Below are positions 36,832 to 55,002 of a DNA stretch of 64,000 bases, one piece after another. A model generated the notes under the pieces. That model did not search any database, was not told where the DNA came from, and saw nothing but the letters and a program-made list of their open reading frames with translations. The stretch covers positions 5,937 to 69,936 of the forward strand of contig JAEEZR010000012.1 of the NCBI GenBank assembly GCA_016292035.1. Direction: 5' to 3'. The position numbers and the translations under genes are program-made. Each line of letters starts with the position of its first letter. The first letter of the stretch is position 1. The stretch comes from Bacillales bacterium (GTDB lineage: Bacteria; Bacillota_I; Bacilli_A; RF39; UBA660).

Positions 36832-36840
36832 TTTTTCCTC

Positions 36841-38481
36841 CTATTCGAAATAGCCATTTCCACCAAATTCTTTTAATACTGAAGTATCTGGTACATAACT
36901 TTCTGGTATATTTAAGAAATTATTTAAGAATTTTATTATTCTTGTTGCTTCACTATAGTAAACACTATTTTCATCTATCTTTAGTAATAGTGGTACTACA
37001 TAAGTTTTTAATACTCCTAGTTCATATATCAAAGCTGTGTTTAAAACAATATCTGCATCGTTTTGATAAGGGAATATGTATTTTTCTTCACTATCTCTTA
37101 CTTGATTCCAGCTTTCTAATGACCCAAGTGCATCTCTTCCTCTTAGTCTAAAGTCTCTTACCATTCTTCTTATCAATCTTACATCCACCGTTGATATGTG
37201 ATTGTGTCTATCTATTCCTAGTGGAGTGAATGGACTTATATATATTTTTAATTTATTTTCTCTTGGAATCTTTTCAGTTACTTTTTCATTTAAAGTATGA
37301 ATTCCTTCAATTATAAGACAGTCTCTATTCTTTAGTGTTACTGGCTTTCTTTTATATTCTTTCTCACCAGTAATAAAGTTATACTCTGGAATAATAACTT
37401 CTTCATTGTTAAGTAGTTTAGATAATTGTTCATTAAATAAATCTAAATCTAATGCTTCTAAGCAGTCAAATAGCAATTCCCCTTTTTCATCTCTAGGAGT
37501 ATCTACCCTATTTTTGAAATAATCATCCATTGATATTATGAATGGGTTAACACCTTTACTTTTTAGCATTAGCGCTAATTTCTTAGCTGATGTTGTTTTT
37601 CCTGATGAAGTAGGGCCTGCTAATAGTATTAGCTTTAATCTATCTATATTATTTGCTATGTGATTTGCTATTTCATTTAAATCTTCGTTTTGCTTAAGTT
37701 CGTTGAGTTCAATGAATTCTTTACTTTTTCCGCTTATTACTATATTGTTAACATCTGATAGGTATCTTACATTTAGTTTGTTTGTCCATTTTTCATAGTC
37801 TTTAAAACATTTTAATACCTGTGGTCTATCAACATATTCTTCTACTTCTCCATTTATTCTAGGTAGCATTAGTACTGCTGAGTGTTCATCTATTAATTTT
37901 ACATCAAAATGTTTTAAACATCCTGTTGAAATAGGCATTACTGTGTAGAAATAATTATAGAATCCTTCTAATTTATAAATAGTAGCTAATTCATTTGTTT
38001 TTAGTCTTAAATTAAGTGCTTTTTCTTTTTCATTTTCTTCATAATAGTTAATTGCTTCTCTTCTTGTTGTTTGTATTTTTTCTATAGGTAAATTACTACT
38101 TACTAGTTCTTGCATTTTAGATATTATTTTAGAAACTTTATATTCATCTAATTCTACACTTGTTTCTGTATATAATCCTTTATCTATAGAGTGCTTTATT
38201 TCTACATCTGTATCTTTTCCAAATAGTTCTTTAATTGCAACTATATATAAGAATTTAAGCCCACTAGCATAGATTAATAGTCCTCTTCTATCTTTATAAG
38301 ATATAAATTTAATTGTAGAATCTTTTTTCACTTTAGTATTTAAATCACATACTTCATTGTTGACTATTGCTGCGACAGAATCGTAGTAATTTGTTTCTCT
38401 AGCAATATCATATAGAGGCAAGTTTCTACTTACTTCCATAGGATTCATATTTTCAACCTTTATTGTTATTCTTTCTTCCAT
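36841..38481 (-). CDS. P-loop kinase of the uridine kinase/phosphoribulokinase family with an N-terminal TGS-like domain (nucleoside kinase-like)
   Basis: Walker A LLAGPTSSGKTTSAKKL in the C-terminal half. The N-terminal roughly 60 aa resemble a TGS/ubiquitin-like fold. 546 aa. Confidence 0.5.
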   Translation of the reverse strand: MEERITIKVENMNPMEVSRNLPLYDIARETNYYDSVAAIVNNEVCDLNTKVKKDSTIKFISYKDRRGLLIYASGLKFLYIVAIKELFGKDTDVEIKHSIDKGLYTETSVELDEYKVSKIISKMQELVSSNLPIEKIQTTRREAINYYEENEKEKALNLRLKTNELATIYKLEGFYNYFYTVMPISTGCLKHFDVKLIDEHSAVLMLPRINGEVEEYVDRPQVLKCFKDYEKWTNKLNVRYLSDVNNIVISGKSKEFIELNELKQNEDLNEIANHIANNIDRLKLILLAGPTSSGKTTSAKKLALMLKSKGVNPFIISMDDYFKNRVDTPRDEKGELLFDCLEALDLDLFNEQLSKLLNNEEVIIPEYNFITGEKEYKRKPVTLKNRDCLIIEGIHTLNEKVTEKIPRENKLKIYISPFTPLGIDRHNHISTVDVRLIRRMVRDFRLRGRDALGSLESWNQVRDSEEKYIFPYQNDADIVLNTALIYELGVLKTYVVPLLLKIDENSVYYSEATRIIKFLNNFLNIPESYVPDTSVLKEFGGNGYFE

Positions 38482-38582
38482 AATTATCTTCCTATTCTAA
38501 TTGTAATTTTATCATATTTTTTGTCATATTTGTATAGAAAAAACTATAATTATACATAATAAAAGCACTAAAAGTGCTTTTA

Positions 38583-39506
38583 TTATTCTCTTACCATTTC
38601 TTTTATTTTTCTAAAGCGGTGGTTAACACCACTTTTTGTTATTTTTTTGTTAGTTTCTATAGACATAATCTGCGCTAATTCTTCCATTGAACTTTCTTTA
38701 TACTTTTCTTTGTATATGCATATTTCTTTAATTTTATCATCTAATAATTCAAAGTCATATTTTTCTTTTAGTTTTCTTATGTTTTCTAATTGTTCATTAG
38801 ATGAAAATACTATTTTATCAATGTTAGCTTGCTCACAGTTATTTAATCTATTTGTCATGTTTTTATGATCTCTATAAATTCTTATATCTTCATAATAGAA
38901 TAGAGAATTATATGCATTTAATAGTTTTATAAAGTCACTTATTTTTTCAGATTCTTTTAAGTATACCATGTATGTTTTTTCTCTTTTTAGTACTTTACTA
39001 TTAAATCCTAATTCATTTAATAGAGAATTTACATAATTCGCAGCTGTTTTATTATCTATTATGAACTCTAAATGGTATCTACTTGTTTTGGGATCATTTA
39101 CACTTCCGCATATTAAGAAGGCTCCTCTTAAATATGCTTTTTTTTCTTCATCTATTTCACATAGATAGCTTTCTGGTTTATGTAGTCTTTTTCCTTCTTC
39201 ATTTACTACATTTAGATCCTTTAAAATATCTTCTACTCTTTCTTCTATTTCAATATTTATTATATGTGATCTTTTAAGTCTGTTTACTTTTTCTTTGGTT
39301 ACTATTATGTCTATTCCATATAAATCTTTTATTAGCTTATAGATTCTTCTAGACAATCCATAGTTTTCTGTTGTTACTATAATTTTATCGTTTGTTATCT
39401 GCGCGTTTATATTAACTATTGCAGATAATTCAGCTATTATTTCTGATTTAGGATAGTCTAAATTACTTATTTCATTTTTTATATTACTAGTGAATGACAT
39501 TACCAA
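38583..39506 (-). CDS. whiA: Sporulation/cell-division regulator WhiA
   Basis: N-terminal LAGLADG-like homing-endonuclease-like domains plus a C-terminal HTH (ELAQIMSIETNKKITKSGVNHRFRKI). 307 aa. Confidence 0.85.
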   Translation of the reverse strand: MVMSFTSNIKNEISNLDYPKSEIIAELSAIVNINAQITNDKIIVTTENYGLSRRIYKLIKDLYGIDIIVTKEKVNRLKRSHIINIEIEERVEDILKDLNVVNEEGKRLHKPESYLCEIDEEKKAYLRGAFLICGSVNDPKTSRYHLEFIIDNKTAANYVNSLLNELGFNSKVLKREKTYMVYLKESEKISDFIKLLNAYNSLFYYEDIRIYRDHKNMTNRLNNCEQANIDKIVFSSNEQLENIRKLKEKYDFELLDDKIKEICIYKEKYKESSMEELAQIMSIETNKKITKSGVNHRFRKIKEMVRE

Positions 39507-40675
39507 CTCCTAGAGTAGAACCAACTTCCTGGGAAATATACTACGTCATTTGGGTCAAATATATAACTCTTATATGATCCTGGATCTGTTAAATGTCCAT
39601 ATGTCATTGAAAGGTGTACATGTGGGCCGGTTGAACAGTTATCATATATTCCGCCCATGTAACCTATTACGTCATTTGCAGTTACTACATCACCAACGTT
39701 AACATTAAAGCTCTTTAAATGCATGTACATTGATGTGTATTCTACTCCTTTTACTACGTGATGGATACCTACTACTCTTCCACCGCATCCCCAGTTTACT
39801 TCGAATGCTACTTTACCTGCTGCGACTGCATAGATTGGTTCTCCTACTGGGTAGCCACTATCTGATACGTCAATTCCAGTGTGTCCTTCATAGTATCCTG
39901 TGATTGGACTTACTCTGAATCCGTAGTCACTTGTAACTACACCTCTATTTAATGGTCTTAAGAATCCTGTTGCTGGTGGAACTCCAGAGCATACTGATAA
40001 TATATCGTCTCTTTCTGTACATCCATTAGCTTCATAGAATGCCATTATTTCTTTTTGGTCTGCTATTCTTTCATCTATATTAGCACCTTCACTATATAAG
40101 TCGTTTATTTTGTTTCCTACTTTTCTTTGTTTTGCTTCTAGTTCTTTTCTTGCTGCTTCTTCTAGTTTTACTTTTTCGTTTAGTTCTTTCTTAAGATTTT
40201 CTTGTTTTTCTATTAATTCATTCATTTCTTTAATAAGTTCTTTATTGTATTTACTTATTTCTTCTACTACTGATACTCTATGAATGAAATCAGTAAAACT
40301 TGTTGCTTTGAATATATATTCTAAGTATGATTTTTCTCCTGAAGATAGTTCAAGGAATACCAATATTTTATTTGTTTCTTCCTTTTTCTTTTCTATTTCA
40401 TCTTCGAGTTCTTTTATTTTGTTAGTAGCTTCTACTATTTGGCTGTTATACTGTGATACCTTTTCTTGTGATTCTAGTATTTCTTTTGCGAGCTTATCAT
40501 ATTCTGCCTGTGATAGAGCTACTTGTTCTTCTTGCACTCGTTTTTCTTCTTCAAGCTTTGCTAGGTTATCTATTAAATCACCATAGGTTTTAGCTCTTGA
40601 AGAGTTAAGTGGTAAAATGAAAAGAAAAGAGATTAATACTGTAAATAACAGTAATATTATCCTTTTTATTTTCAT
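39500..40675 (-). CDS. M23 family peptidase with an N-terminal coiled coil (EnvC-like murein hydrolase activator), co-transcribed with ftsEX
   Basis: Signal/TM, a long coiled coil (KLEEEKRVQEEQVALSQAEYDKLAKEILE...), and a C-terminal M23 LytM domain (HTGIDV...GGRVVGIHH). Sits directly downstream of ftsX, as EnvC/CwlO-type partners do. Confidence 0.8.
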   Translation of the reverse strand: MKIKRIILLLFTVLISFLFILPLNSSRAKTYGDLIDNLAKLEEEKRVQEEQVALSQAEYDKLAKEILESQEKVSQYNSQIVEATNKIKELEDEIEKKKEETNKILVFLELSSGEKSYLEYIFKATSFTDFIHRVSVVEEISKYNKELIKEMNELIEKQENLKKELNEKVKLEEAARKELEAKQRKVGNKINDLYSEGANIDERIADQKEIMAFYEANGCTERDDILSVCSGVPPATGFLRPLNRGVVTSDYGFRVSPITGYYEGHTGIDVSDSGYPVGEPIYAVAAGKVAFEVNWGCGGRVVGIHHVVKGVEYTSMYMHLKSFNVNVGDVVTANDVIGYMGGIYDNCSTGPHVHLSMTYGHLTDPGSYKSYIFDPNDVVYFPGSWFYSRSW

Positions 40676-41574
40676 TATATCTTTAAATACCTCCTTACAG
40701 CATGATATGAAGCAAATGCTCCTACTACTGTTCCTATTATCATTAGTGCAATTGATATCATTAGAAGTACTTTATCTGGATTTACTAATGTTATTACTGA
40801 TGTAAATAATACTCCATCAAGTTTTTCATATAGGAATATATATCCCCAGCAGCTTATAAGAATTGGTAATAAGCTACCTAAGAATCCTAGTATTATTCCT
40901 TCAAAGAAGTAAGGTCTTTTTATATAAGAGTTAGATGCTCCTACTAACCTTTCTATTTCTATTTGTCTTTGTCTATTGTTGATTGTTATTTTAATTGTAT
41001 TTGATATTAAGAATAAAGTTACTACTCCAAGTGCTATAACGATTGTATACATTACTTTTTTTACTATGTTAAATATTTTTACTAGTTGTTCAACCATTCC
41101 TTCTCCATATTTAACTGAGTATACATGTTCTAATTCTTTTATCTTTTTTGCTGTTTTTCCTATTGTTTCTACATCTTTTACTTTTACTTCATATTCATTT
41201 AGTAGTGGATTGGTTTCATTATTATATTGACCTAATATGTTGGCTAGTTCATCACTTTCCTTAGACATACTTTTCTTTATTTCTTCATTTGATATAAATT
41301 TAATAGTATCAATATTTTCGAATTCTTCTATTTGCGCTTTTAAGTTTTGTATTTCTTCTTCTGTTGTTTCTCTTTCAATAGATACTACTATTGTTACATC
41401 TTTTTCAATATCGCTTGTAAACTTTTCTACATTAACAGTAAGTAACATTGCAACTGCTACCAAGGCTAGTGTAATTGATATACAAGATATACTTGCTATA
41501 CTAAGCGAAAAGTTTCTAAATACACTTTTAAATGCATCTTTTATGTTGTTTTTTAATATCCTAAATGGTTTCAT
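40675..41574 (-). CDS. ftsX: Cell division permease FtsX
   Basis: Four TM helices with a large first extracellular loop. 299 aa. Start overlaps the ftsE stop. Confidence 0.85.
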   Translation of the reverse strand: MKPFRILKNNIKDAFKSVFRNFSLSIASISCISITLALVAVAMLLTVNVEKFTSDIEKDVTIVVSIERETTEEEIQNLKAQIEEFENIDTIKFISNEEIKKSMSKESDELANILGQYNNETNPLLNEYEVKVKDVETIGKTAKKIKELEHVYSVKYGEGMVEQLVKIFNIVKKVMYTIVIALGVVTLFLISNTIKITINNRQRQIEIERLVGASNSYIKRPYFFEGIILGFLGSLLPILISCWGYIFLYEKLDGVLFTSVITLVNPDKVLLMISIALMIIGTVVGAFASYHAVRRYLKI

Positions 41575-42260
41575 TATTTAGTGTAACCTCCTTTTGGTGT
41601 ATCTTTTACAAGTATACCTTTTTCTAGAGTTACTACTCTTTTTTGATATTTATTAACAATATCTTTATCATGTGTTGCCATTATTACTGTTGTTCCGTCT
41701 TTGTTAATTTTATCTATTATTTCCATTATTTCTAGTGATGTTTTAGGATCTAGGTTACCAGTTGGTTCATCACAAATTAATATTCTTGGATTATTAACTA
41801 TTGCCCTTGCGATTGATACACGTTGTTGTTCTCCACCAGATAGTTTGTCAGGCATGCTTCTAAATTTATCTTTTAGTCCTACTACTTCTAGAGCCTGCAT
41901 TGTTCTTTCTCTTATTTCACTTCTTTTAAGTCCAAATATTTCTAGAGCAAATGCTACATTTTCAAATACAGTCATGTTTGGAAGAAGTTTGTAGTCTTGA
42001 TAGACTACACCTATTTTTCTTCTTATTTTGTATACTTTAGAGTTTCTTAATTTAGCAACGTTAATGCCACCTACATATACTTCACCTTTAGTTGGTTTTT
42101 CTTGTCTATATAGTAATTTTATTAGTGTACTTTTTCCAGATGCAGTTTGACCAATTATAAATACAAAATCTCCTTTTGCTATTGAAAGGTTAATATCGCT
42201 TAAAGCAGTTATACCATTTTTATATTGCTTATAAACGTTGTTTACTTCTATTAAGTTCAT
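41574..42260 (-). CDS. ftsE: Cell division ATP-binding protein FtsE (ABC ATPase)
   Basis: Walker A GQTASGKST, ABC signature LSGGEQQR, and Walker B ILICDE. 228 aa. Confidence 0.9.
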   Translation of the reverse strand: MNLIEVNNVYKQYKNGITALSDINLSIAKGDFVFIIGQTASGKSTLIKLLYRQEKPTKGEVYVGGINVAKLRNSKVYKIRRKIGVVYQDYKLLPNMTVFENVAFALEIFGLKRSEIRERTMQALEVVGLKDKFRSMPDKLSGGEQQRVSIARAIVNNPRILICDEPTGNLDPKTSLEIMEIIDKINKDGTTVIMATHDKDIVNKYQKRVVTLEKGILVKDTPKGGYTK

Positions 42261-42270
42261 TACTTCCTCC

Positions 42271-43137
42271 TTAGTTTCTTAAATCATGGAATGGTAGTTT
42301 ATATTTGTTAGTACCACCATATACTTCATATGCATCTACTATAGTTATAAATGCATTTTTGTCTATTTTTATTATTTCCTTTTTTAGAAGTAGGTATCTT
42401 TCACTAGGTACTACACACATTAATACTTTATCATTTTTATTAGTATATCCTGCGGTTACTTTTATTTCACTTATACCACTTTCATATTTATTTATTACTA
42501 ATTCTTTTACTTTATCAATTTCTTTAGTATTTATGAATAATACTTTAGAGTCACTTATTCCTATCATAAAGTTATCTATTAAAAGTCCTTCTATAAATCT
42601 TATTATAAGTGCGATTACTAGTGCTTCTAGTCCAAATACTGATGCACCAAATGCTAGTATTATAGAGTTTATACAAAATGAGCCTTTTCCAAAAGCTACT
42701 CCAAACTTTTTATGAAGTATTAGTCCAAGTATATCAACTCCACCAGTAGTGTAGTCTGCTAAATATACTAGAGTGCATCCTACTCCAAACATGCATCCTA
42801 CTGCTACTACGTCTAGGAAAATAGAAGAGAATTCTATCTGTATATATGGATATAAATATTCAAATAAATACATAAATAGTGTATATACTACTGATCCTAT
42901 TATTGATTTATAAATATTCTTGAATCCAAGTGTAGCTATTCCAAGTAGAATAACAAGTATATTACCTATTACTAATACTGTAGATACTTTTACATCAAAT
43001 AAATAATTAAGTATTAAGCCTATAGCACTTACTCCACCAGTAATGTAATTATGTGACATACATATAGCATTAAAAGTAAAAGCTATTAGGGCACAACCCG
43101 CTATCATGAATAATACATTCTTTAATTCTTTTTTCAT
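42271..43137 (-). CDS. YitT family membrane protein (DUF161 TM domain plus C-terminal DUF2179)
   Basis: About 5 TM helices followed by a soluble C-terminal domain. 288 aa, typical of the YitT/YqfU family. Confidence 0.65.
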   Translation of the reverse strand: MKKELKNVLFMIAGCALIAFTFNAICMSHNYITGGVSAIGLILNYLFDVKVSTVLVIGNILVILLGIATLGFKNIYKSIIGSVVYTLFMYLFEYLYPYIQIEFSSIFLDVVAVGCMFGVGCTLVYLADYTTGGVDILGLILHKKFGVAFGKGSFCINSIILAFGASVFGLEALVIALIIRFIEGLLIDNFMIGISDSKVLFINTKEIDKVKELVINKYESGISEIKVTAGYTNKNDKVLMCVVPSERYLLLKKEIIKIDKNAFITIVDAYEVYGGTNKYKLPFHDLRN

Positions 43138-43222
43138 ATTTCCTACTTTCTCTTATAATTTTACTATCTTTCTTTAGAAAAGTCTATTTTTTAATAAAAT
43201 AAAAAAGGCTTTTTAAGCCTTT

Positions 43223-43804
43223 TTATTCGATAACGTTTCTACAAGATTTACATTTTCCTGTTTTTTCAGTCAATTGATTTATAGCTCCACAGTTAGGGCA
43301 TTTAACAACACGAAAGTTTTCTGCTTTTATTTGTTGTTCTTTTAATCTCATATCATTTTCCTGAACTCTTTGTTCTTCATTTTCTAAATGAGTTGTTATT
43401 GTTTCTTTAGCATCTCGTTTTATTGATTCAATTTTACTTGTTACCTTTTCAAATAATCTACGAACAATATATCCAACTATTATTAGTATTATTCCTACTG
43501 TTATCAGTCTTTTCCCATATGGAATTAGTCCTTTATATATATCGGAATCTAATACATTTTTTAATAATGGAATATCATTTATTTTTAGTTGTTTAGTAAC
43601 AAAGTCTATCATTATTGGTACAAATAATATAAGTCCAGTAGCTATTATCCACATCATTGATTTAGAATAACTGTCTAATCTTCTATATCCTTTTTGAAGA
43701 AAGAATTTAGCTATTAATAGACATACTCCTAAAAATGGTAGGAAGTATAATACTACTAATATTACAGGTATACTAAATAAAAATTTTAATATTTTTTCTG
43801 TCAT
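43223..43804 (-). CDS. Membrane protein (2-3 N-terminal TM helices, coiled coil) with a C-terminal C-x2-C-x12-C-x2-C zinc ribbon; third gene of the YdjGHI-like module
   Basis: TM helices IPVILVVLYFLPFLGVCLLIA and WIIATGLILFVPIMI. C-terminal VKCPNCGAINQLTEKTGKCKSCRNVIE. Start overlaps the upstream gene's stop. Confidence 0.5.
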   Translation of the reverse strand: MTEKILKFLFSIPVILVVLYFLPFLGVCLLIAKFFLQKGYRRLDSYSKSMMWIIATGLILFVPIMIDFVTKQLKINDIPLLKNVLDSDIYKGLIPYGKRLITVGIILIIVGYIVRRLFEKVTSKIESIKRDAKETITTHLENEEQRVQENDMRLKEQQIKAENFRVVKCPNCGAINQLTEKTGKCKSCRNVIE

Positions 43805-45669
43805 TATTTATCATCCTTTTTAAATTCATTTACTATTTTACCAGTTACAGTACTGTTAAATGAGGAACTTATATTATCTTTTATTCCTTCTTTAGATAAG
43901 TTACTAAATATCTGGCTAGTACTTGATTGTCCAGCTACACTTCTATTGTTAGCTCCTGAAATAGTACTACTTGATAGGCCTGTTCTATGGTTTATGTACT
44001 GATCTACTTTTTGTATGTTGGACATGCTATTTTTTGTTTCTTTTTCATATGTATGTCTAGCACCTTTATTTCTATATTTTGAATATATAACGAGGAAGTA
44101 TATTACACCTGCTGCTAGAAAAACATAATCATATTCATAATCAACAAACATCATTGCAATTAATGCAATTAACTCTATTAGAGCAGATATACCAAAAAGT
44201 TTAGGCATATGAATAGGAACACTACCCATTGTTTCTTTTGTTCTAGCATTTACTGCTACATAGTGAAGTAATTGTTTATCACCTTTCTTTTCCATATAGC
44301 TATAAAGCCATACTGGAAGATAAGCTGATGCCCATTGTTGTCCTTTGACAGTTAATTCTTCTCTTTCCCATCTAACTCCTCTATCGTACTCTTCAATAGT
44401 ATCATTAGTTGAGTATCTTGCTATGTCTTTTGATTGAATCTCTACTACTGGTTTTAAGTCTTCAATATTAACATCTCTTTTTTCTGATGTATATCCTCTT
44501 AAGTAGTTAGAGTTATATTTAACACAGTTTTCTGTATCAAATGGCATTATTGCATTTATTATATTAGTTGTCTTTTCTTTGTTAGTGCTATCTAATTTAT
44601 CTTTAGAAGATTCCACTGATAAACCTTTTATAGCAATGTCAAAGTCTCTTTCAACATGATATACATCGGCATCATATCTAGTTTCACTATGATCTCCATT
44701 TTTAACTGTATATCTTCTTGTTTCTATTTCTCCTTCGCCTTTTAAATTAGCGTGTGCATTTATATCTACTAGCATATAAGGGAAATATACACCCATTATA
44801 TTTTGAGTAGTAAATTCTTCTTTAAACCTAGGGTTAGCAAAGAATTTTCTTTTGCCAACAAACTCTTCAATGCTTTTTTGAGCGTCTTCTTTAGCAACAC
44901 TAAATGGAAGAAGAGTATCAGGTACAGCTCCGTTTGGAATTGTATTATTTATAGATAATATGTTTCTGCACCAGTGACATTTGGCTTGGTTAGCACTTGC
45001 AGTATCTATTACTACTTGTGCTCCACAGCTTGTACATTTAAGTGTAATAACATCATTTGCATCAGCACTTATGTTTTGAGCACCTGATCCTATTATTTCA
45101 CCTTCCAATTTATTAACATCTTGTTCAAATACATCTAGTTTTTCTTGTTCAAATTCGCTTCTACAGTATCTACATTTTAATTTACCTGTTTTGACATTAA
45201 GTGATATGTCAGTAGCACCACAGAAAGGACATTTTACCTGTCCATCTTTAGCGCCTTCATCAGTTTTTACTACTTTTGTCTCTTCATTTGTTTTATTTTC
45301 TGCTTCTTCTGTAGAATTGACTTCTGATACAAGTGGTTTTGAGATTTTATCATAATCAATGTCTAAATTCATAGAATCTATTTTATAACTACTTATTTTT
45401 CCATTAATTATGTTCTTTAATTCCTCTTCATTAAAACTATCTTTAATATTTTCTAATGTTATCCCATCAGGATTTTTTGCCAAGAAGTCTGAAACATATT
45501 CATTTATAGAACTCCATATATCTGAAGAAATTATGTCATCAGATGGAATTTCTTTTCCTTCCTGTGGATTAATCTTTATATTTCCCTTAATAATAAATCC
45601 CATTAGGGCTTGATAGAAACTATCATTATAAGTTAAAGAAGAAGGAGATTCAAAATACATATCTTTCAT
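43804..45669 (-). CDS. Double zinc-ribbon protein with a C-terminal TM hairpin and a Ser-rich tail (YdjG-like)
   Basis: Two C-x2-C-x14-C-x2-C ribbons (VKCPFCGATDISLNVKTGKLKCRYC and LKCTSCGAQVVIDTASANQAKCHWC). TM hairpin LFGISALIELIALIAMMFV...FLAAGVIYFLVIY near residues 500-540. 621 aa. Confidence 0.5.
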   Translation of the reverse strand: MKDMYFESPSSLTYNDSFYQALMGFIIKGNIKINPQEGKEIPSDDIISSDIWSSINEYVSDFLAKNPDGITLENIKDSFNEEELKNIINGKISSYKIDSMNLDIDYDKISKPLVSEVNSTEEAENKTNEETKVVKTDEGAKDGQVKCPFCGATDISLNVKTGKLKCRYCRSEFEQEKLDVFEQDVNKLEGEIIGSGAQNISADANDVITLKCTSCGAQVVIDTASANQAKCHWCRNILSINNTIPNGAVPDTLLPFSVAKEDAQKSIEEFVGKRKFFANPRFKEEFTTQNIMGVYFPYMLVDINAHANLKGEGEIETRRYTVKNGDHSETRYDADVYHVERDFDIAIKGLSVESSKDKLDSTNKEKTTNIINAIMPFDTENCVKYNSNYLRGYTSEKRDVNIEDLKPVVEIQSKDIARYSTNDTIEEYDRGVRWEREELTVKGQQWASAYLPVWLYSYMEKKGDKQLLHYVAVNARTKETMGSVPIHMPKLFGISALIELIALIAMMFVDYEYDYVFLAAGVIYFLVIYSKYRNKGARHTYEKETKNSMSNIQKVDQYINHRTGLSSSTISGANNRSVAGQSSTSQIFSNLSKEGIKDNISSSFNSTVTGKIVNEFKKDDK

Positions 45670-45696
45670 ATTTTAATTTCCTTCTTTCTTTTGTTA

Positions 45697-46974
45697 TTAA
45701 TTATTTTCTAAGTATTGTTTTTTAGCTGCATCAAATTCTTCTTGTGATAGAACTCCTGCATCTAATAATTTTTTCATTTCAATTAATTTATCTGTAGCAC
45801 TTGCTGATGCTGCTACTGCACCTGCTTGCATTTGTTGACTTTGAGCTGCAGTTTGTTGAGCATTATTTGCATAAGCTCCTCCAGCCATTCCAGCCATGTT
45901 CATTCCCATGAAGCCCATCATAGCGCCATTTTCATTACCAGCTGCTGCTTTAAGAGCTTCTCCTTGGTATACTTGAGCCAATGATGGATTTTCTCTAAAT
46001 GCTGCACCCATTTCAGTAACTCTACCAATTTCAATTTTGTTAGATTGAACTTTCTTGTATTGTTCTTTAGTCTCTTCAGTGTAGTCAATACTACCTGCTG
46101 AAGCTTCAACTAAGATAATACCATATGTTGATAACCATCTACCATCGTTTTCGATAGCTGATGACATTGAAGCAGCAAACTTTTCTGGATGAGCTTTTAC
46201 ATATATTTTAGTGTCTGTTCCATGAATATTTGGATTGATTTCTCTTTGTTTAGCTAATTCAACTTCAGCTTCTGATGATAATAAAGCAATACCAGTTTCA
46301 AGATTCTTATTGAATGTATTCATTAATTCTCTTACTTTTGGTTCTTCATCATCATTCATATCAAATGGTTTAGCATTTGGACTTAAGTATTCATATGAAA
46401 CGAAATTTCTTATGAATAGTAATGGGTTAACGATTTGAACACCGAATGTACCATTAACTGTTGCGTCAGCTTGGATTCCCATATATGTATCCCACCAAGA
46501 TGTTGGTGATTGTGTTCCGAATGTAATACCAGTTATAGGTTTTAAATTAACATAGAATGCTAATTGTGTAGTTGCAGGAATTCCTCCAAATTTAAATTGT
46601 TCTTTTACTGCATCCCATCCACCAGCTATACCTTTTCCTAGTCCTTCACCTAAGAAGCTTGCTGAATTTGGATCATCTGTTCTAAATTCATAGTTTCCTG
46701 GTTCTGCAACACATCCAGTGATTTTTCCATCTTGGATAGTTACTAATGCATAGTTTTCTGGAACCATAATTTTACTTCCATTAGAAATTACATTATCGTT
46801 ACCATTAACGTTATGGTCTCCTCTTTCACCATTTCTTGTAACTTTTGTAGCTGGAGCTAATGCAATGTATGTTCCCATGTCTTCTCTAGGAACAAAGTAC
46901 TCCAACCATTCATTACCAAGTACTCCACCAGCAGCATCGCCGATTGTACCTACTAAATTCTTAATAAATCCCAT
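45697..46974 (-). CDS. SPFH/Band-7-family protein (Band_7_1-like, annotated in databases as virion-core-protein-like) with a C-terminal SHOCT domain (YdjI-like)
   Basis: 425 aa. The Gly/Ala/Met/Gln-rich segment and terminal DKLIEMKKLLDAGVLSQEEFDAAKKQYL match the SHOCT consensus. The N-terminal body resembles the Band_7_1 class found with PspA in B. subtilis (ydjI). Confidence 0.6.
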   Translation of the reverse strand: MGFIKNLVGTIGDAAGGVLGNEWLEYFVPREDMGTYIALAPATKVTRNGERGDHNVNGNDNVISNGSKIMVPENYALVTIQDGKITGCVAEPGNYEFRTDDPNSASFLGEGLGKGIAGGWDAVKEQFKFGGIPATTQLAFYVNLKPITGITFGTQSPTSWWDTYMGIQADATVNGTFGVQIVNPLLFIRNFVSYEYLSPNAKPFDMNDDEEPKVRELMNTFNKNLETGIALLSSEAEVELAKQREINPNIHGTDTKIYVKAHPEKFAASMSSAIENDGRWLSTYGIILVEASAGSIDYTEETKEQYKKVQSNKIEIGRVTEMGAAFRENPSLAQVYQGEALKAAAGNENGAMMGFMGMNMAGMAGGAYANNAQQTAAQSQQMQAGAVAASASATDKLIEMKKLLDAGVLSQEEFDAAKKQYLENN

Positions 46975-47067
46975 ATCTTTACCTCCTCGTATACTGAATT
47001 TATTATAGTACTTTTTTACTATTAACTTAATTTTATCATATTTTTTCTATTAACAATAGTTTTTTGT

Positions 47068-47104
47068 TAAAAATAGACATATCATTCGTCAATGATATGT
47101 CTAT
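47068..47104 (-). terminator. Strong rho-independent terminator: perfect 14-bp stem (atagacatatcatt/aatgatatgtctat), 4-nt loop, then TTTTT on the minus strand, directly after the stop of the 47109..48767 gene
   Basis: Inverted repeat at 47073..47086 and 47091..47104, loop cgtc. The A5 run at 47068..47072 gives the U-tract for the minus-strand transcript. It separates the zinc-ribbon island from the SPFH module. Confidence 0.7.
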
Positions 47105-47108
47105 TCTA

Positions 47109-48767
47109 TTATTTATTCTTTTGCCCAGTATAAATTAATTCACATTCGTCATTATAATATAAGTATGTATCTTTAGTTTCTATTCTTACATATCTTTCGT
47201 AATAATTAGCACCCCAGAATACCATATCTTTTGGAAACTTTTCTTGCTTACCTGTTACTAGATTGTAGAAATACTCTTCGTCTGTATCATTATCTGCATA
47301 CGCAATAAAATCACTTTCTGTCTTTTGAGATAAGTAATCAGTGTTAATCTCACGTTCAGATTTACCTGTTTTTGTATTAATAAGATAGCTCTTTTCATCT
47401 TTTCTACCTATTACATATGGTTTTCCTTTTGATTCAAGGTATTTATATACATATAAATCTATATATTCAATTTCATTCCATTCATACGGTACTACCACTG
47501 CTTCACCTTTGACAATTCCAATTTTTCCGTTATTATTTTGCCTTTTCATTTTTGTATATTCTTCCCACTTATCTATTTTTTCTTCTTTTTTTATGGTGCT
47601 ATAATTTACGAACTTTTTAGAATTGACATCAAGGTATTTATAATTATAATTCTTTGAATCATAGATTGATATATATCCTTTTGCATATATATCAATTCTT
47701 CCGTTTTCATCGGTAGTTTCATATGCTATTTGATCATTAGCTGCATATATTCTCTTAACGAAATCATAGTTTGAATCATGGATTTCAAATATATTATTAT
47801 CTTCATCTTCTATTCTTGAGTCTGTGAAGTCATATACTACTTTTCCTGTGTCACAACTGACTATAGCTCTTTTATCTTCTACGCGTACAATACAGTAGCG
47901 TTCTGTTAAATAACTACTTCTCACATCTGATTGTGTATAATCAAAGTAATCTCCATCTTGTAAGTCAGCTGTATATGTTATCTTTCCATCTTTAGTCATT
48001 ATACCAGCCTTTTTACCATCAGCTGATTCCCATTTTAAGTAATGTTGTTTTATTAATAATGATGATTTCTTTGAAACTTTTATCCCCTCTTGTGTTAGTG
48101 GTTTTAAAGACTTATCATACAGTCTTCCATCAATAATCCAGTTACCTGTTTCACTTTCTATTTCAATTTCATTTTCATACTTTCTGACTACATTTCCTTT
48201 TGTATCTATTATTTCTTTATTATCAAGTATTGCAGCGTAGTTGCCATTAAAATCGCTTGCGTATTCGTACTTTGGCTCTACTATTACTTTACCTTCTAGA
48301 TTTATATATCCAAATTTTCCATTGTTTAACACTCTTATAATCTTATCACTTGAAAAATTTGATAGTTCTTCTTTTTGAGAAAAAGGTTTTTTTATAACTA
48401 TATATGCAATAGCAGCTATTAATACTAGCACTATTACAATTGGCACTATAGGTTTCTTTTTTTGATTCTGATTATTGTTTACTCTTTGTTCATCTTGATT
48501 ACCATAAGCCGGTTGTGGATTAGCAGGTGCTGGGTTTTGTACTTGATTTGAATAAGTATTAGTTACCTCTGAGGCTGCCTGTTCACCATTAACTTGTGGT
48601 TCAGGTGTGGCAGCTATTGGTGCTGACACTCCCATATTATTTGCATTTTGATTGCTTAAAAAATTTGCTTGCGGAGTTTCAACTTGTCCTTCTTGTTTTT
48701 TTCCACAGAAAGGACAAAACTCTGCTTCGTCATTTATAAAATTATTACAATTATTACATTTTTTCAT
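47109..48767 (-). CDS. Zinc-ribbon single-pass membrane protein with a WG-repeat ectodomain
   Basis: MKKCNNCNNFINDEAEFCPFCG, a Pro/Gln/Asn-rich linker, and TM IVPIVIVLVLIAAIAYIVI. GKFGYINLEGKVIVEPKYEYASDFNGNYAAI fits the WG-containing repeat consensus (GkwGyId..Gk.vI.p.yd.a..F..G.A.v). 552 aa. Confidence 0.6.
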   Translation of the reverse strand: MKKCNNCNNFINDEAEFCPFCGKKQEGQVETPQANFLSNQNANNMGVSAPIAATPEPQVNGEQAASEVTNTYSNQVQNPAPANPQPAYGNQDEQRVNNNQNQKKKPIVPIVIVLVLIAAIAYIVIKKPFSQKEELSNFSSDKIIRVLNNGKFGYINLEGKVIVEPKYEYASDFNGNYAAILDNKEIIDTKGNVVRKYENEIEIESETGNWIIDGRLYDKSLKPLTQEGIKVSKKSSLLIKQHYLKWESADGKKAGIMTKDGKITYTADLQDGDYFDYTQSDVRSSYLTERYCIVRVEDKRAIVSCDTGKVVYDFTDSRIEDEDNNIFEIHDSNYDFVKRIYAANDQIAYETTDENGRIDIYAKGYISIYDSKNYNYKYLDVNSKKFVNYSTIKKEEKIDKWEEYTKMKRQNNNGKIGIVKGEAVVVPYEWNEIEYIDLYVYKYLESKGKPYVIGRKDEKSYLINTKTGKSEREINTDYLSQKTESDFIAYADNDTDEEYFYNLVTGKQEKFPKDMVFWGANYYERYVRIETKDTYLYYNDECELIYTGQKNK

Positions 48768-48776
48768 TTTTCCTCC

Positions 48777-51404
48777 TTATAAGCCCAAATTCTTTAAATC
48801 TTTTTCTAGCGATTCGCTCATTCTTATTACGCTTCCAGTCTCCGTATAGTAATCATTTGCTTCGGTAGCACATGAGCTTTTTTTAGTATTACATACCATG
48901 GTTAAATATCTTTTTGCTCCTGGGTGATTGCTGTCATATACAGCAATGAAATATTTATTATTATCATTGATATCTTGTATCATACTGATAGCATTTACTG
49001 CATGGTTTTCGCCCGAATAATTCCCACCTATTACAACTGGATCTTTTGCTCTTAGTCTATTTATTAGTGCACCTGTAAAATATATTCCGTTTTTCATTGT
49101 AACATCATTTATGTTTAATATGTCCCTCTTAACAACTTCAAACGAATTTCCTGATGACAGTACTTCTTTATACTTGTTCATTTGTTGAGAATGCATATGG
49201 TATATGCTTTTAAACAACTCTTTCTCATCTTGTGTTATTTGATTTGTTTCCGAAAGCTTACTTTCTAATAGTTTATAAACCTCATATTCATCATAATTAG
49301 GTCTGGAAGAAATACTTTTTGTTTCTATCTTATATATTCCTGAGTTTATCATTGTGTCTCTGTAGTCATTTGAAAGTTGTAAAACTCTATCAACTGGTTT
49401 TGGATCCCATCTATTTTGCTCTTCTTCTCCAAAAGCTGCTGATCCTACTGCATATTTTAAAATATTTGATGTTAGTTTATAATCATATAGATTCTTATAT
49501 GATGTTAAATGACTATTTGTTAATTTGTACTCTGGGGCTGTTGTACCATACGGATTGTCCTTGTTAACAAATCTTGTTGCTGCAGAAGTCTCGATTTCTC
49601 TGCTTGCTAAACTCATTGGTAATTTCTTCACATAATATAATTCTGCGAATAGAGCCATTCCATGGCAGTGGCCCCCCGAAACATCCGTAGTATAGTTATG
49701 AAACGAAAATCCATCTCTGCTTGCAGTAAATCCACTGTCTGCCACTAGCAAGCCTTCATATATTCCATCTCCATCTATGTCTACCAGCCCATCATTAACT
49801 GCTGTTTCTACCTTTTGAAGTGTTTCATCAAGTCCACTGACATCTGAAGAAGAATAGAATTCGCATCCAGTCTCTTCTGAAATTTCTTTTAGGTCTTCGT
49901 TCTTTGAGCCTTCACCAAATCCTACTGCACAGACTTTAGCTCTGTTTAGAGTAGCTTTATTAATTAGACTCTTTTTATCATATTTAAGGCTACTGTCTTC
50001 TCCGTCTGTGAGTAAGATTACAATTTTGTTATCTGTATCTGAATTAAATTCTTTTATTGATTTTTCAATTGCTTCACTTATATCAGTTCCTGCACTTCTA
50101 GTTATGAATGTTCCGTTCATTGCTGATACTTTATCTGATATTGTTTTATAATCTTGTCCAATGCCCACCAAAGATGCATAATCCGCTCTGAATTCAGATA
50201 CTCCAACACTGTATCCTTTATCTATAAACTTCTTTGATAATTCTTTAGTTAAATCAAATCTTCTTCCTTCAGTGTCTGAAGCTGATAATGGAGTAGCTGT
50301 TCCACCAAATAAAGTATCCCACCAACTTCCTGTATATTCTTCTCCAGTTATTTCTTTATATTGAGCATTAGAATACATGCTCCATGAATTATCTAAAACA
50401 AATAGCACTTCTGTTGTATTACTTTCTTTTACTTCGTCTTTATCTCCAACTACATACATTGAAAAGTGTTCTAAGTTCGCTGTTACTCTTTTACTATTCT
50501 TGTCTACTTTTGACTCAACTGGCTCATATGTGCCTTTTTCTACATTATAGTAATAAATAGTTAGATTCTCTTCTTTAATATTATACTTTGTTAACTCTTC
50601 ATCAGTATAGCTAATTGTCATCTCTATCTTATCTAGCTTTGCGTTTGAGTGTATAGAGTACAACTTATTTATTAGACCATTTTTCTTTGATATTGCTGTA
50701 TCATCTATGATGTTTGCACTTAATCCAGCTAAATTTCCTTTACCTGTTAAATTGATTTCCAAATTTTCATTCTTATAGTTATATGTTAAAGTTCTTTGTG
50801 AGTCATTAACGCCATCACCTTTTGAATCTGTTTTTAACGGATCTAGTTCTAACAGTACTTCATCATAATCACTTACTGTGTCCCCATCAGTGTCCTTCTT
50901 TAGCGGATCTGTCTTACTAACATTTAATTCGTAATAATCTGGGAGACCATCTAAATCTGTGTCTGACAATTCCGGATTAGTGCCTTTTTCTTTTTCTTCT
51001 TTATTAGTAAGGCCATCATTATCAGTGTCATCATTATCACTTAAAACAATTTCATATCCCGAACCTAGATCAGCAGTAAAATCTTTAATTACTTCTAATT
51101 TGATTTTTATTCTATCTTTTTTATATGTTGCTGTAATAGTACACGTTTTTCCTTTTTCTTTTGTTAAATCCCAAACTACTTCTAATTCGTTTTGAGTTAT
51201 TTCACCACATGTAGAATTAAACTTTACTTTTGTAGGGTCTTCGCCCTCTATAAGTGATACTTTTAGTTTTACTTTTACCGGTGTGACTATTCCGTCTTCT
51301 ATATCGGAGTAAGTTTTATCCCAGCTTATTGCTTTTGGACCAAAAAAGTAAAAATATGCGAAAATACCAGAAGCTATTAGTACTATTGCTAACAATATTA
51401 TCAC
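48777..51404 (-). CDS. Single-pass membrane protein with thrombospondin-type-3-like Ca-binding D-x-D-x-D-G repeats, a VWA domain with a MIDAS motif, and a C-terminal Cys/His-containing domain. The N-terminal zinc ribbon is detached by a frameshift (see 51407..51502).
   Basis: (V)IILLAIVLIASGIFAYFYFF TM. DTDNDGLTNKEE, DTDLDGLPDYYE and DTDGDTVSDYDE repeats. VLFVLDNSWSM (D-x-S-x-S MIDAS) and ILLTDGED. GGHCHGMA near the C-terminus. The ORF-track start is GTG. Confidence 0.6.
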   Translation of the reverse strand: MIILLAIVLIASGIFAYFYFFGPKAISWDKTYSDIEDGIVTPVKVKLKVSLIEGEDPTKVKFNSTCGEITQNELEVVWDLTKEKGKTCTITATYKKDRIKIKLEVIKDFTADLGSGYEIVLSDNDDTDNDGLTNKEEKEKGTNPELSDTDLDGLPDYYELNVSKTDPLKKDTDGDTVSDYDEVLLELDPLKTDSKGDGVNDSQRTLTYNYKNENLEINLTGKGNLAGLSANIIDDTAISKKNGLINKLYSIHSNAKLDKIEMTISYTDEELTKYNIKEENLTIYYYNVEKGTYEPVESKVDKNSKRVTANLEHFSMYVVGDKDEVKESNTTEVLFVLDNSWSMYSNAQYKEITGEEYTGSWWDTLFGGTATPLSASDTEGRRFDLTKELSKKFIDKGYSVGVSEFRADYASLVGIGQDYKTISDKVSAMNGTFITRSAGTDISEAIEKSIKEFNSDTDNKIVILLTDGEDSSLKYDKKSLINKATLNRAKVCAVGFGEGSKNEDLKEISEETGCEFYSSSDVSGLDETLQKVETAVNDGLVDIDGDGIYEGLLVADSGFTASRDGFSFHNYTTDVSGGHCHGMALFAELYYVKKLPMSLASREIETSAATRFVNKDNPYGTTAPEYKLTNSHLTSYKNLYDYKLTSNILKYAVGSAAFGEEEQNRWDPKPVDRVLQLSNDYRDTMINSGIYKIETKSISSRPNYDEYEVYKLLESKLSETNQITQDEKELFKSIYHMHSQQMNKYKEVLSSGNSFEVVKRDILNINDVTMKNGIYFTGALINRLRAKDPVVIGGNYSGENHAVNAISMIQDINDNNKYFIAVYDSNHPGAKRYLTMVCNTKKSSCATEANDYYTETGSVIRMSESLEKDLKNLGL

Positions 51405-51406
51405 TA

Positions 51407-51502
51407 TTAATTTTTATTTATTGGTTTTCTTTTTTTAGCGCCACATCCCGGACAGAATGCCGCTTCCTCTGGAATTGCTATTCCACATTTTTTACAGTTC
51501 AT
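51407..51502 (-). CDS. Stand-alone 31-aa zinc-ribbon mini-ORF (MNCKKCGIAIPEEAAFCPGCGAKKRKPINKN), the detached N-terminal anchor of the downstream VWA protein. Followed by TAA-TAG-TGA in its own frame.
   Basis: Same C-x2-C-x10-C-x2-C-G plus basic linker as the other island paralogs. It is one A short of being in frame with 48777..51404 at the A5 run 51411..51415. Confidence 0.5.
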   Translation of the reverse strand: MNCKKCGIAIPEEAAFCPGCGAKKRKPINKN

Positions 51503-51520
51503 ATTCTACTCCTTTTTATA

Positions 51521-53893
51521 TTAAACACTTTTTGCATTGTCCACAATTACTTGTGGGATTTCCACATCTCCAGCTTTATCATAATTTGAAAATTCTATTG
51601 TTGCTGTAAACAGTTCCATAGTATCTATCATATCAGAAAAATCATATTCTAGTTTTGTGATATAACCATTTTCTGTGTAGACATCTACATATACATCACC
51701 TTTTATTGCTGATGTATCTGCTTTTGCATCGTTCATTAAACCTTCAATATCTTTCTTACTCATTTTTACTTTATAATGGTTTTTTGATACTGTTTGGACA
51801 TCTTTCATGGTTGTTAACTGATTTAGTATTTTTTTTAAGTCTACCAGTTGCGATGTTCCTTTTTCTTTCCACCATGTATCTCCTCCGAAAGGTTGAGTCA
51901 TATAAGTTATCCCTGAATTGAAGTCATAATATAGCTTACTTGATAGTGTCATACCTAGAGTTGTATTATCGGAATCTAAGTATTCTTTTTGATGGAGTTC
52001 ATCAACTGTACCTTTTGAATGTGATTCAACTTCTATTCCAATTACTTTAGTGTGCATTGTTACTTCTATATTATAGTTTTTAAATGAAGTATTGTATTCA
52101 CTATTTTTTACTACCTTGCTGTTTTTTACGTCGATAGTATAACTATATGTAGTAGTTATGTCACCATTTGTTACTACTAGGTAAATGTTATCATAAGTTA
52201 CATACAAGGCAGTATCAACCTCTAGTTCACTTGATGTCTTTTTTAATTCCTTATAGTAACCATTTTTCTCTCCATAAAGAATTATAGTTAAGTATTCATT
52301 ATTATTTACTGATACTTTTAATTCAGTCTTTTCTCCTAATTTGAAGTAGTCAATAGAACCTTCTCCAATTACGATGTTATATGTTTTTTGTTCGTTAATT
52401 TCTTGCTTATCACTAATTCCCATGTTAGATATTAGTGACTTATTATCATAATTTTGGCTTAGTGTGTAGTATGCCAAATCATTTATTGTGTTAATTAATT
52501 CCTCTTTAGAAGCATTATTTCTTATGTATTTAAATGGTTTTTCTTGATAGTGGGCATTCATTAATATTTCAGCCCAGTTGCTTACATTCTGAGAGAATGA
52601 ATAATAATATGGGAAAATTCCATACCCAAGATAGCCTGATTTATTAGCAACATTTGCAAGGTTATTACTAGTTGCCTTCGTATATATTCCGGCCCAATTA
52701 TTTAGATAATTGTTAGTAGAGTTTACATTGCTAACTTTTACACTTGCAAAGTTTGCCATTCCTTCAGTTATTAATTCTGGTGAAGTACATCTATCTTTAG
52801 TATTAGCTTTGCAATATAGGTATTGCATGTGATGAAACAATTCATGATTAGCTAACTGAACTAAGCTATCTAAACCATCAGAAAAGCCTCTCTTGTTTAT
52901 AACAATATAAGGATAGTTTATTATGCCATCTTCATCTAGAATATCAAGAAACAATGATCTGTTAATCCATTTTTTTGCATCAACTTCGTCTTCATAAGAG
53001 GCTAGTGTGCTATCACTTCCAGTGTCATAAACATACACACTCATGGCAGTTTTTAATATGTCTTTAGGCATATTATTTTGTTCAAGTACTGTCTTTGCTT
53101 TTTTCCAATCCTCATTAAATACTTTGTTATCAACGTATGGACTATAAATGTATTCAATACCAAATTCCTGTTCATACATATTAACACTATTTTCTAATGT
53201 GTCAGATATTAGTTTTAACTGCTCCTGTGTAATTGCATCTTCTCCATCACTTGCATACCATATTAGGAAGTTATTTTTAGATGATAAATATACATTATTT
53301 AGTCTATGATTATATGTATTACTTTTATCTTCCTCGTTACTTAAGAATTGCACTTTATAGCTACTTTTAGAACTATTTGATTGTTGAACATTAGATTTTT
53401 CTTCACCAAGTGATACATTAATCAATAATTTATTCTCCAAATAAAACTTAACTATGTTTTCGTCTAGTTCATCGTAATGATTTTCTAGTAACTCTGTTGT
53501 TTCAAATTCACATCCTGAAGTGTGATAGTTATAGTCTGATTGATATTTGGAATTTAATTTTTCTGTTGAAAACTCTAAGTACACTAACTCAGTGAAATAA
53601 TCCTTTGTACTTAAATTTCCATTTTCATAATCTTTTTTTATTTTTTCTAGCGAGTTTAATTTTTCGGATTCAACTATAGTTTGGTTGTTACTATTGTTGT
53701 CCTTATTCTCATTATTATTTTCCGTTTTTTGAAGTATGAAGTACGCTAGCACTCCCGCAGCTATTATAACTAAAAGAACTAGCAAAATAATAATCTTGCT
53801 AGAGAATGATTTTTTTCTTTCAATTTTATTTCCGCAGTTTGGACAGAATTCTACATTATTATCTACCTGTGTGCTGCAATTACTACACTTCAT
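51521..53893 (-). CDS. Zinc-ribbon single-pass membrane protein with a large ectodomain containing an HExxH (zincin-like) motif
   Basis: MKCSNCSTQVDNNVEFCPNCG, a basic linker, and TM IIILLVLLVIIAAGVLAYFIL. NHELFHHMQY is encoded at 52826..52846 (HExxH at 52832..52846). 790 aa. Confidence 0.55.
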   Translation of the reverse strand: MKCSNCSTQVDNNVEFCPNCGNKIERKKSFSSKIIILLVLLVIIAAGVLAYFILQKTENNNENKDNNSNNQTIVESEKLNSLEKIKKDYENGNLSTKDYFTELVYLEFSTEKLNSKYQSDYNYHTSGCEFETTELLENHYDELDENIVKFYLENKLLINVSLGEEKSNVQQSNSSKSSYKVQFLSNEEDKSNTYNHRLNNVYLSSKNNFLIWYASDGEDAITQEQLKLISDTLENSVNMYEQEFGIEYIYSPYVDNKVFNEDWKKAKTVLEQNNMPKDILKTAMSVYVYDTGSDSTLASYEDEVDAKKWINRSLFLDILDEDGIINYPYIVINKRGFSDGLDSLVQLANHELFHHMQYLYCKANTKDRCTSPELITEGMANFASVKVSNVNSTNNYLNNWAGIYTKATSNNLANVANKSGYLGYGIFPYYYSFSQNVSNWAEILMNAHYQEKPFKYIRNNASKEELINTINDLAYYTLSQNYDNKSLISNMGISDKQEINEQKTYNIVIGEGSIDYFKLGEKTELKVSVNNNEYLTIILYGEKNGYYKELKKTSSELEVDTALYVTYDNIYLVVTNGDITTTYSYTIDVKNSKVVKNSEYNTSFKNYNIEVTMHTKVIGIEVESHSKGTVDELHQKEYLDSDNTTLGMTLSSKLYYDFNSGITYMTQPFGGDTWWKEKGTSQLVDLKKILNQLTTMKDVQTVSKNHYKVKMSKKDIEGLMNDAKADTSAIKGDVYVDVYTENGYITKLEYDFSDMIDTMELFTATIEFSNYDKAGDVEIPQVIVDNAKSV

Positions 53894-53915
53894 TCTTTTT
53901 CCCTACCTTTAGTTG

Positions 53916-54953: not shown

Positions 54954-54972
54954 GCTATGCTATTATGATTTA

Positions 54973-55002
54973 ATTATATTATATAGCAATATAGCTTGTA
55001 AA
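54973..55002 (-). promoter_or_regulatory. Candidate sigma-A promoter (TTTACA -N18- TATAAT on the minus strand) in the 64-bp gap between rlmH and the first zinc-ribbon gene
   Basis: -35 at 55002..54997 and -10 at 54978..54973, read on the minus strand. AT-rich background makes chance matches likely. Confidence 0.3.

Follow-up and report, generated by a model that had tools for sequence, protein, structure and literature searches.

Organization of the operon

Analysis of a 64,000-nucleotide stretch (here called the window) of the genome of a Bacillales bacterium (assembly GCA_016292035.1, contig JAEEZR010000012.1, positions 5,937 to 69,936 of the forward strand) revealed a minus-strand operon of three genes, here named A, B and C, the first two of which encode relatives of YdjI and YdjG, proteins of the Bacillus subtilis pspA-ydjGHI operon. 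Gene A (45697..46974, minus strand) encodes a soluble SPFH (Band_7_1) protein of 425 amino acids (aa) with a C-terminal SHOCT domain, gene B (43804..45669, minus strand) a YdjG-like, membrane-anchored double zinc-ribbon protein of 621 aa, and gene C (43223..43804, minus strand) a lineage-restricted accessory protein of 193 aa. These three open reading frames (ORFs) agree in position and strand with those of an earlier note on this DNA, which had likened them to a YdjGHI envelope-stress module. Nearly all long ORFs of the window (1..64000) lie on the minus strand.

According to the ORF list and the sequence itself, the three genes form one operon bracketed by hairpins. Genes A and B are 27 nucleotides (nt) apart, with a GAAGGA ribosome-binding site between them, and the stop codon of B and the start codon of C overlap (TAATG), for which reason C is probably made together with B. 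Upstream of A, reading of the sequence revealed a promoter-like element (TTAAGT-17-TATAAT) and a Shine-Dalgarno sequence (GAGGAGG) at 46975..47030 on the minus strand, with the putative -10 hexamer at 47007-47002; this putative promoter is missing from the list produced by the consensus scan because its -35 hexamer matches at 3/6 positions. A 15-bp palindromic hairpin at 47072..47105 (no strand assigned), detected by the terminator scan and in the sequence, separates the operon from the upstream gene and has a short T-run on the minus strand. Directly 3' of C, at 43202..43224 on the minus strand, lies an intrinsic terminator of canonical form, AAAAAGGCTT-AAA-AAGCCTTTTT plus a T-run. In GC content the operon equals its surroundings, at about 27-31%, and neither tRNA genes nor Rfam families at gathering score were detected in the window.

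Gene A encodes a soluble SPFH protein

The product of gene A matches the Pfam family Band_7_1 (PF13421) with 29.3 bits against a cut-off of 24, a partial match covering residues 139-195 only, and the family SHOCT (PF09851) with 27.6 bits against a cut-off of 27, a narrow margin for an alignment that spans the full profile (1-28/28) at residues 395-422 (45709..45792, minus strand). Within the SHOCT domain, K401, L404, D405, G407, K418 and L422 are invariant in 45 homologs. The Band_7_1/SPFH region as a whole extends over residues 56-306 (46057..46809, minus strand), as delimited by hhalign to residues 24-224 of YdjI and by the AlphaFold2 (AF2) model, which has strands and helices at 68-298 and a predicted local distance difference test score (pLDDT) of 77.9. 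The model shows the alpha/beta fold of SPFH proteins followed by long helices of the kind found in ring- and cage-forming members, and its match to HflC, flotillin, prohibitin, stomatin, HflK and QmcA extends into the helices past the SPFH core.

Most homologs of A likewise carry PF13421, and the best non-self matches share 42% identity with it. The combination of an SPFH-like body and a terminal SHOCT motif proposed in the earlier note is borne out by both Pfam scores, which exceed their cut-offs, the SHOCT match falling on the very motif that had been quoted. A hydropathy scan detected no hydrophobic segment in A. A is therefore a YdjI-family SPFH protein (Band_7_1) that is soluble and has no membrane anchor of its own.

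Gene B encodes a YdjG homolog with an additional SPFH-fold domain

Regarding gene B, no Pfam family was matched above its cut-off and only weak matches to TFIIB-type ribbons were found, including one of 18.3 bits between Zn_Ribbon_TF and the first ribbon. Zinc ribbon 1 (C147/C150/C166/C169; 45163..45231, minus strand) and zinc ribbon 2 (C212/C215/C231/C234; 44968..45036, minus strand) have cysteines that are invariant in 65 homologs and in YdjG. The double ribbon described previously is thus present with all eight cysteines conserved, but with the spacing C-x2-C-x15-C-x2-C when read from the sequence, rather than the x14 spacing originally given. The ribbons are followed by a conserved, cytoplasmic alpha/beta core domain (residues 250-482; 44224..44922, minus strand) with a high density of invariant positions, which aligns to YdjG and is modeled with high pLDDT except in a low-confidence loop at 367-395; no structural relative of this core was found among solved structures.

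Hydropathy and the AF2 model place a membrane hairpin at residues 488-532 (44074..44208, minus strand), in agreement with the transmembrane (TM) hairpin reported before: a strong TM segment at 491-509 (hydropathy peak 2.5) and a shorter hydrophobic helix at 513-532, modeled as helices 488-508 and 520-532, plus 514-518. Past the hairpin lie a conserved cytoplasmic motif, YRNxGARHxYExETK, and then a beta-hairpin at 546-565 whose strands belong to a block with pLDDT of 85-97; Y532, R533, N534, A537, R538, H539, E542 and T545 are invariant in the 65 homologs. B is thus a YdjG homolog whose ribbons and conserved domain face the cytoplasm and whose C-terminal hairpin is in the membrane.

A further domain, not noticed in the earlier note, is an N-terminal SPFH fold at residues 1-106 (45352..45669, minus strand), identified from the AF2 model of B (pLDDT 75.5), in which this domain is confident, and from profile comparison. 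The extension of window B itself has no direct Pfam match, and the comparison of the B extension with the single YdjI sequence was not significant (hhalign, E 0.1); in three other 'long' B proteins the corresponding region scores above the Band_7_1 cut-off, aligning to positions 74-205 of that profile, and the profile of the B extension matches the SPFH core of A (86.9%, E 4e-6). The N-terminal SPFH-fold domain is found only in a minority of B proteins, the 'long' ones. A full-library HMMER search, which returned 3414 B relatives among 50%-identity representatives, further revealed a natural fusion (P0330, 682 aa) of a complete Band_7_1 domain (42-263, 45 bits) with a B-like protein (269-668). 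Other B representatives have long unexplained extensions, either N-terminal (P0269, P0271) or C-terminal (P0273, P0276, P0297).

Gene C is restricted to a few loci

The protein encoded by gene C has three hydrophobic or TM segments (14-32, 51-69 and 96-118) followed by a charged stretch of helix and, at the C terminus, a Cys4 ribbon, CPNC-x12-CKSC, encoded at 43241-43300; the N-terminal TM helices and the terminal ribbon that had been described for it are thus seen in sequence and hydropathy. No match above cut-off was found in Pfam or NCBIfam, and the family comprises 24 proteins among 5.8 billion searched. Homologs of C are always encoded 3' of A and B, as in the related loci L011 and L090-L093, and in L085 the homolog is the fourth gene.

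Comparison with the pspA-ydjGHI operon of Bacillus subtilis

The B. subtilis operon was represented by a reference locus (L004), a B. subtilis-type pspA-ydjGHI from a metagenome, retrieved via the primers printed in PMC8581546. In Pfam its PspA is PspA_IM30, its YdjG Zn_Ribbon_TF, its YdjH a TPM domain protein (TPM_phosphatase, 82.6 bits) and its YdjI Band_7_1 (147 bits) with a Zn_ribbon_3 at C-terminal residues 302-322. B matches YdjG by BLASTP with an E value of 2e-25 and 23% identity over YdjG residues 6-333 of 341, and the eight cysteines and about 35 further positions are invariant across the B homologs and YdjG. The match between A and YdjI is weak for the single sequence (E 0.002), and the profile built from 45 homologs of A aligns to YdjI over the whole SPFH domain (hhalign 97.1%, E 5e-11). 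A profile match of A to Band_7_1 and a match of B to YdjG-type double ribbons, the two relationships on which the earlier note had let its proposal depend, were therefore both found. Its statement that the operon encodes exactly the YdjGHI set holds for the YdjG-type B and the YdjI-type A and fails for the third member, since there is no TPM-type YdjH and C is unrelated to the set. C was considered as an analog of YdjH by homology, and this was rejected, since C lacks a TPM domain and does not resemble YdjH.

Both the operon of the window and that of B. subtilis thus combine the gene for a soluble Band_7_1 SPFH protein, in which a linker rich in Met, Gly and Gln comes after the SPFH part, with that for a partner composed of two Cys4 ribbons, a conserved domain on the cytoplasmic side and a membrane anchor at the C terminus. 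They differ in that the operon of the window has neither pspA nor a TPM-domain YdjH and has the unrelated gene C (three TM segments and a ribbon) as its third gene, begins with the SPFH gene, and encodes an A protein that ends in SHOCT, with no C-terminal cysteine pairs, whereas YdjI ends in a zinc ribbon. Window B also has a two-helix hairpin, the post-membrane motif and the extra N-terminal SPFH-fold domain, and identity to YdjG and YdjI is about 23% only. The sigma-W motif TGAAAC-N15-18-CGTA, a species-specific feature whose absence carries little weight, had 0 matches in the window.

In B. subtilis, the soluble protein YdjI requires YdjG and YdjH for its localization to the membrane (Scholz et al., 2021, PMC8581546), and the YdjG, YdjH and YdjI proteins are required for the formation of PspA foci (PMC8581546). 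YdjG has been described as two ribbons, a YpeB-related NTF2-like domain and a TM segment, and the TPM protein YdjH as the conserved partner of PspA (Ravi et al., 2024, PMC11237479). No literature on the SPFH/YdjG-like pair outside B. subtilis was found.

Conservation of the A-B gene pair and absence of PspA

B has more than 6500 relatives, the best of them 55-71% identical and some named 'TFIIB-type zinc ribbon-containing protein'. The genomic context was compared in the best 80 of 188 B relatives, one genome per species, with 54-71% identity to window B. These loci come from uncultured Bacilli and Clostridia, Peptostreptococcaceae, Anaerococcus, Eubacterium brachy, E. infirmum and Streptococcus zalophi, and from a few metagenome-assembled genomes (MAGs) labelled Treponema, Saccharibacteria, Coriobacteriia and Muribaculaceae. 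In 75/80 loci the gene immediately 5' of B, and on its strand, is A, with a gap of at most 4 nt in 51 of them, and the same order is found in L001, L085, L088 and L090. The third gene is variable, being an unrelated membrane protein gene, one for a DUF4428 zinc-ribbon protein, or a gene on the opposite strand. Since A adjoins B in nearly all loci and the third gene varies, the conserved unit is the two-gene A-B pair and not the module of three genes that had been proposed. A strict three-gene module was rejected, a true ortholog of C following B in 1/80 species loci (L011).

Outside this set, Enterococcus gallinarum encodes an SPFH protein (Band_7_1 plus a double ribbon), a YdjG-like protein and a TPM protein, in this order, and Comamonas a Band_7_1+HTH_17 protein followed by a TFIIB-type ribbon protein with no third gene; pspA was not found within ±5 kb in either. 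These loci, known from annotated genomes only, resemble that of the window in having the SPFH gene first, then the YdjG-like gene, and in the variable tail of the SPFH protein. Enterococcus differs from the window in keeping the TPM protein and in the zinc-ribbon tail on its SPFH protein, Comamonas in the HTH_17 tail, and their B-like proteins are only about 25% identical to window B. The tail domain of the SPFH protein is thus interchangeable between zinc ribbon, SHOCT and HTH. An order with SPFH first and no adjacent pspA is therefore common, and what had been regarded as an inverted gene order peculiar to this operon is the arrangement of 75/80 related loci as well as of Enterococcus and Comamonas. 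The E. gallinarum triad is located on a record named as a plasmid (L094; NZ_CP116511.1, pK205-4a-A, 484 kb) with rplL, rplJ, rplA, dnaX, recR and tmk beside it, a gene content suggestive of a chromid or a fragment of a chromosome and not of an ordinary plasmid.

Regarding PspA and TPM, searches of all stop-to-stop ORFs of the window with single sequences gave best E values of 2.1 for PspA (phmmer --max, L004 PspA) and 0.5 for TPM (phmmer --max), in line with the statement of the earlier note that the window has no pspA, and none of the 80 related loci had either gene within ±7 kb. A split system, in which the pair acts as in B. subtilis by bringing to the membrane a PspA/IM30 protein encoded elsewhere in the genome, would accord with the homology to YdjG and YdjI, which is real by BLASTP and hhalign, with the requirement for the B. 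subtilis counterparts in the formation of PspA foci, and with the fact that the genome was examined over 64 kb only. It is made less probable by the 0/80 loci with pspA in the vicinity and by Enterococcus, which keeps TPM yet has no adjacent pspA, and we regard it as the main alternative account but not the favored one.

In 11 diverse loci, where the local flanks range from 25 to 52% GC, the GC content of the A-B genes varies with them, which argues for long residence and strong constraint at the protein level rather than recent transfer; B is 57-66% identical among five compared genomes. Homologs of B with 55-62% identity are also encoded in S. zalophi and in MAGs labelled Saccharibacteria, Treponema, Coriobacteriia, Muribaculaceae and Prevotellaceae (L060, L072, L075, L066, L005 and L043), with GC matching the local flanks; these are either old transfers or mis-binned contigs.

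Patchy taxonomic spread would also be explained if the A-B pair were an anti-phage defence system or cargo of mobile elements, given the scattered taxa (including one Streptococcus species and MAGs labelled Treponema, Saccharibacteria and Coriobacteriia) at a flat 55-58% identity and a link between PspA and the regulation of CBASS that is reported in one paper. However, A and C had no match in PADLOC 2.0 and B had two weak partial ones (E 1e-4 and 1e-3), while in PHROG only the pieces with SHOCT and the zinc ribbons were matched. A search of 2.9 million viral contigs returned no relatives, and the weak distant matches in 9/72,556 plasmids, mostly chromids, and in 8/50,697 phage records do not cover 80% of the query in any case. 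Together with housekeeping genes as flanks and GC equal to that of the flanks, this makes a role in defence or as mobile cargo highly improbable.

Neighboring genes

Upstream of the operon lies an island of genes for three large predicted surface proteins of 552, 875 and 790 aa (47109..53893, minus strand). A zinc ribbon (ZnR) and a TM segment are found in both the 552-aa and the 790-aa protein, combined with WG repeats in the former and with a large ectodomain in the latter, whose N-terminal 120 residues match phrog_14275 (E 6e-12). The 875-aa protein contains TSP3 repeats together with a VWA domain. Still further upstream, at 53916..54953 (minus strand), lies the gene for a ZnR+Yip1 protein of 345 aa, with a zinc ribbon at its N terminus (Zn_Ribbon_1, 30.1 bits) and a multi-TM domain resembling Yip1 (26.6 bits, just under the cut-off).

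The earlier note had suggested that the module might be a partner of the zinc-ribbon surface proteins. Near A-B in the 80 loci, relatives of the surface-protein genes are absent. Three observations nevertheless speak for a link. Homologs of the ZnR+Yip1 protein are encoded by the gene that directly follows B in L022 (E 1e-23) and L072 (E 1e-13). In L085 a ZnR-TM protein gene is inserted between B and the C homolog, with overlapping stop and start codons. A DUF4428 protein of ~285 aa, which has a zinc ribbon at its N terminus and is devoid of TM segments, is encoded beside A-B in 8 loci (sites include L001 at 9461..10324, L018, L019, L025, L032, L033 and L060), either directly downstream of the pair or one to two genes upstream. 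Proteins with a terminal ribbon are weakly enriched beside A-B (9/282 near against 5/332 far). A functional link of A-B to zinc-ribbon surface proteins is thus possible, though weakly supported.

No consistent neighbor family of A-B was detected, the commonest occurring in at most 11/80 loci. The commonest are a NarL/GerE-type response regulator (11 loci) and a membrane histidine kinase (8 loci), mostly upstream (for example L001 2836..4637), which could hint at regulation by envelope stress or could reflect shared ancestry of the loci. Downstream of the operon, at a distance of 1-4 kb, there are genes for FtsE, for FtsX and for an M23 peptidase whose N-terminal part is a coiled coil (39500..42260, minus strand). 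In L082 (349..2442), ftsX and an M23 peptidase gene are likewise found a few kb from A-B, which may be coincidence.

Relation to other SPFH and SHOCT proteins

Like the A-B pair, the cage-forming SPFH proteins, including HflK/HflC-FtsH, QmcA-YbbJ (SPFH-NfeD), flotillin, prohibitin and stomatin, have a membrane protein as operon partner, and the second SPFH-fold domain on the partner B recalls the HflK/C and PHB1/2 hetero-oligomers. They differ in carrying their own membrane anchor, of which A has none, and in having NfeD or a protease as partner rather than a YdjG-like zinc-ribbon protein. Pfam scans detected no NfeD family in the neighbors of A (the 552-aa upstream protein and B) or in C.

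An SPFH assembly of this kind might enclose or regulate a membrane machine such as a protease or a cell-wall apparatus, as in HflK/C-FtsH or QmcA-NfeD. The model of A is closest to the cage-forming HflC, HflK and QmcA, deletion of ydjG or ydjH in B. subtilis mislocalizes peptidoglycan synthesis under alkaline shock (PMC8581546), and ftsEX and M23 peptidase genes are located near the pair here, as ftsX and an M23 peptidase gene are in L082. Nevertheless, genes for proteases, NfeD or the cell wall are not consistent neighbors, the flanks differ by lineage with each family in at most 11/80 loci, and the proximity to FtsEX is limited to 2 loci, which leaves a client machine of this type quite unlikely.

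Regarding the SHOCT domain, Band_7_1 is its commonest domain partner (Eberhardt et al., 2013, PMC3581485), and the Band_7_1+SHOCT architecture of that study is exactly that of A; a YdjG-like neighbor of such proteins is not described there. The single reported oligomerization test of SHOCT was negative (PMC3581485).

Proposed function

The operon may encode a PspA-independent version of the SPFH/YdjG membrane-scaffold system, in which B would tether A and the resulting oligomer would organize a patch of the membrane, a reading of the sequence data to which we assign a probability of roughly 0.55. B would recruit A to the membrane on its inner side, in the way that YdjG and YdjH recruit YdjI in B. 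subtilis, and A and B together might form an oligomeric scaffold that organizes or stabilizes a membrane patch under envelope stress. Here, B may itself join the A oligomer through its N-terminal SPFH-fold domain, giving a hetero-oligomer of the HflK/HflC kind, and C would be a lineage-specific accessory membrane subunit, co-translated with B.

Several points weigh against this proposal. Direct contact between A and B is deduced from gene linkage and one fusion protein, and two-hybrid analysis in B. subtilis showed contacts of YdjI with YdjH and PspA and of YdjG with YdjH (PMC8581546). Most B homologs have no N-terminal SPFH domain, which therefore does not provide the general mechanism of tethering. 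The absence of PspA derives from a single-sequence phmmer search rather than a Pfam profile, and in the source genome the search covers the 64-kb window only. Finally, window A is unusually divergent, with 36-41% identity to other A proteins against 50-62% among those, and its partner B shows no matching acceleration.

The A-B pair is tightly linked and strongly constrained, it is represented by thousands of proteins of gut Bacillota, and PspA and TPM are not nearby in the loci examined. That it is kept without these neighbors suggests a function of its own, to which the recruitment of PspA would perhaps be a lineage-specific addition. The only experimental model of YdjG and YdjI is that of helpers which bring PspA to the membrane. 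A bolder reading, which we consider rather unlikely, is that the SPFH-then-YdjG-like pair is an autonomous, ancient membrane-scaffold machine of which the pspA-ydjGHI operon of Bacillus is one derived elaboration. If this were true, B would be a dedicated tether that co-assembles with a soluble SPFH ring, in the present case via its SPFH-fold domain and elsewhere by fusion, and membrane proteins with cytoplasmic zinc ribbons would be interchangeable clients or adaptors docked on the scaffold, with C, the ZnR-Yip1 and DUF4428 proteins and possibly the neighboring surface proteins as candidates. The practical impact is modest, in what is a very common membrane module of gut anaerobes; the SPFH-fold domain on B and the SPFH-B fusion offer a concrete, testable idea of how a soluble SPFH protein may be tethered to the membrane.

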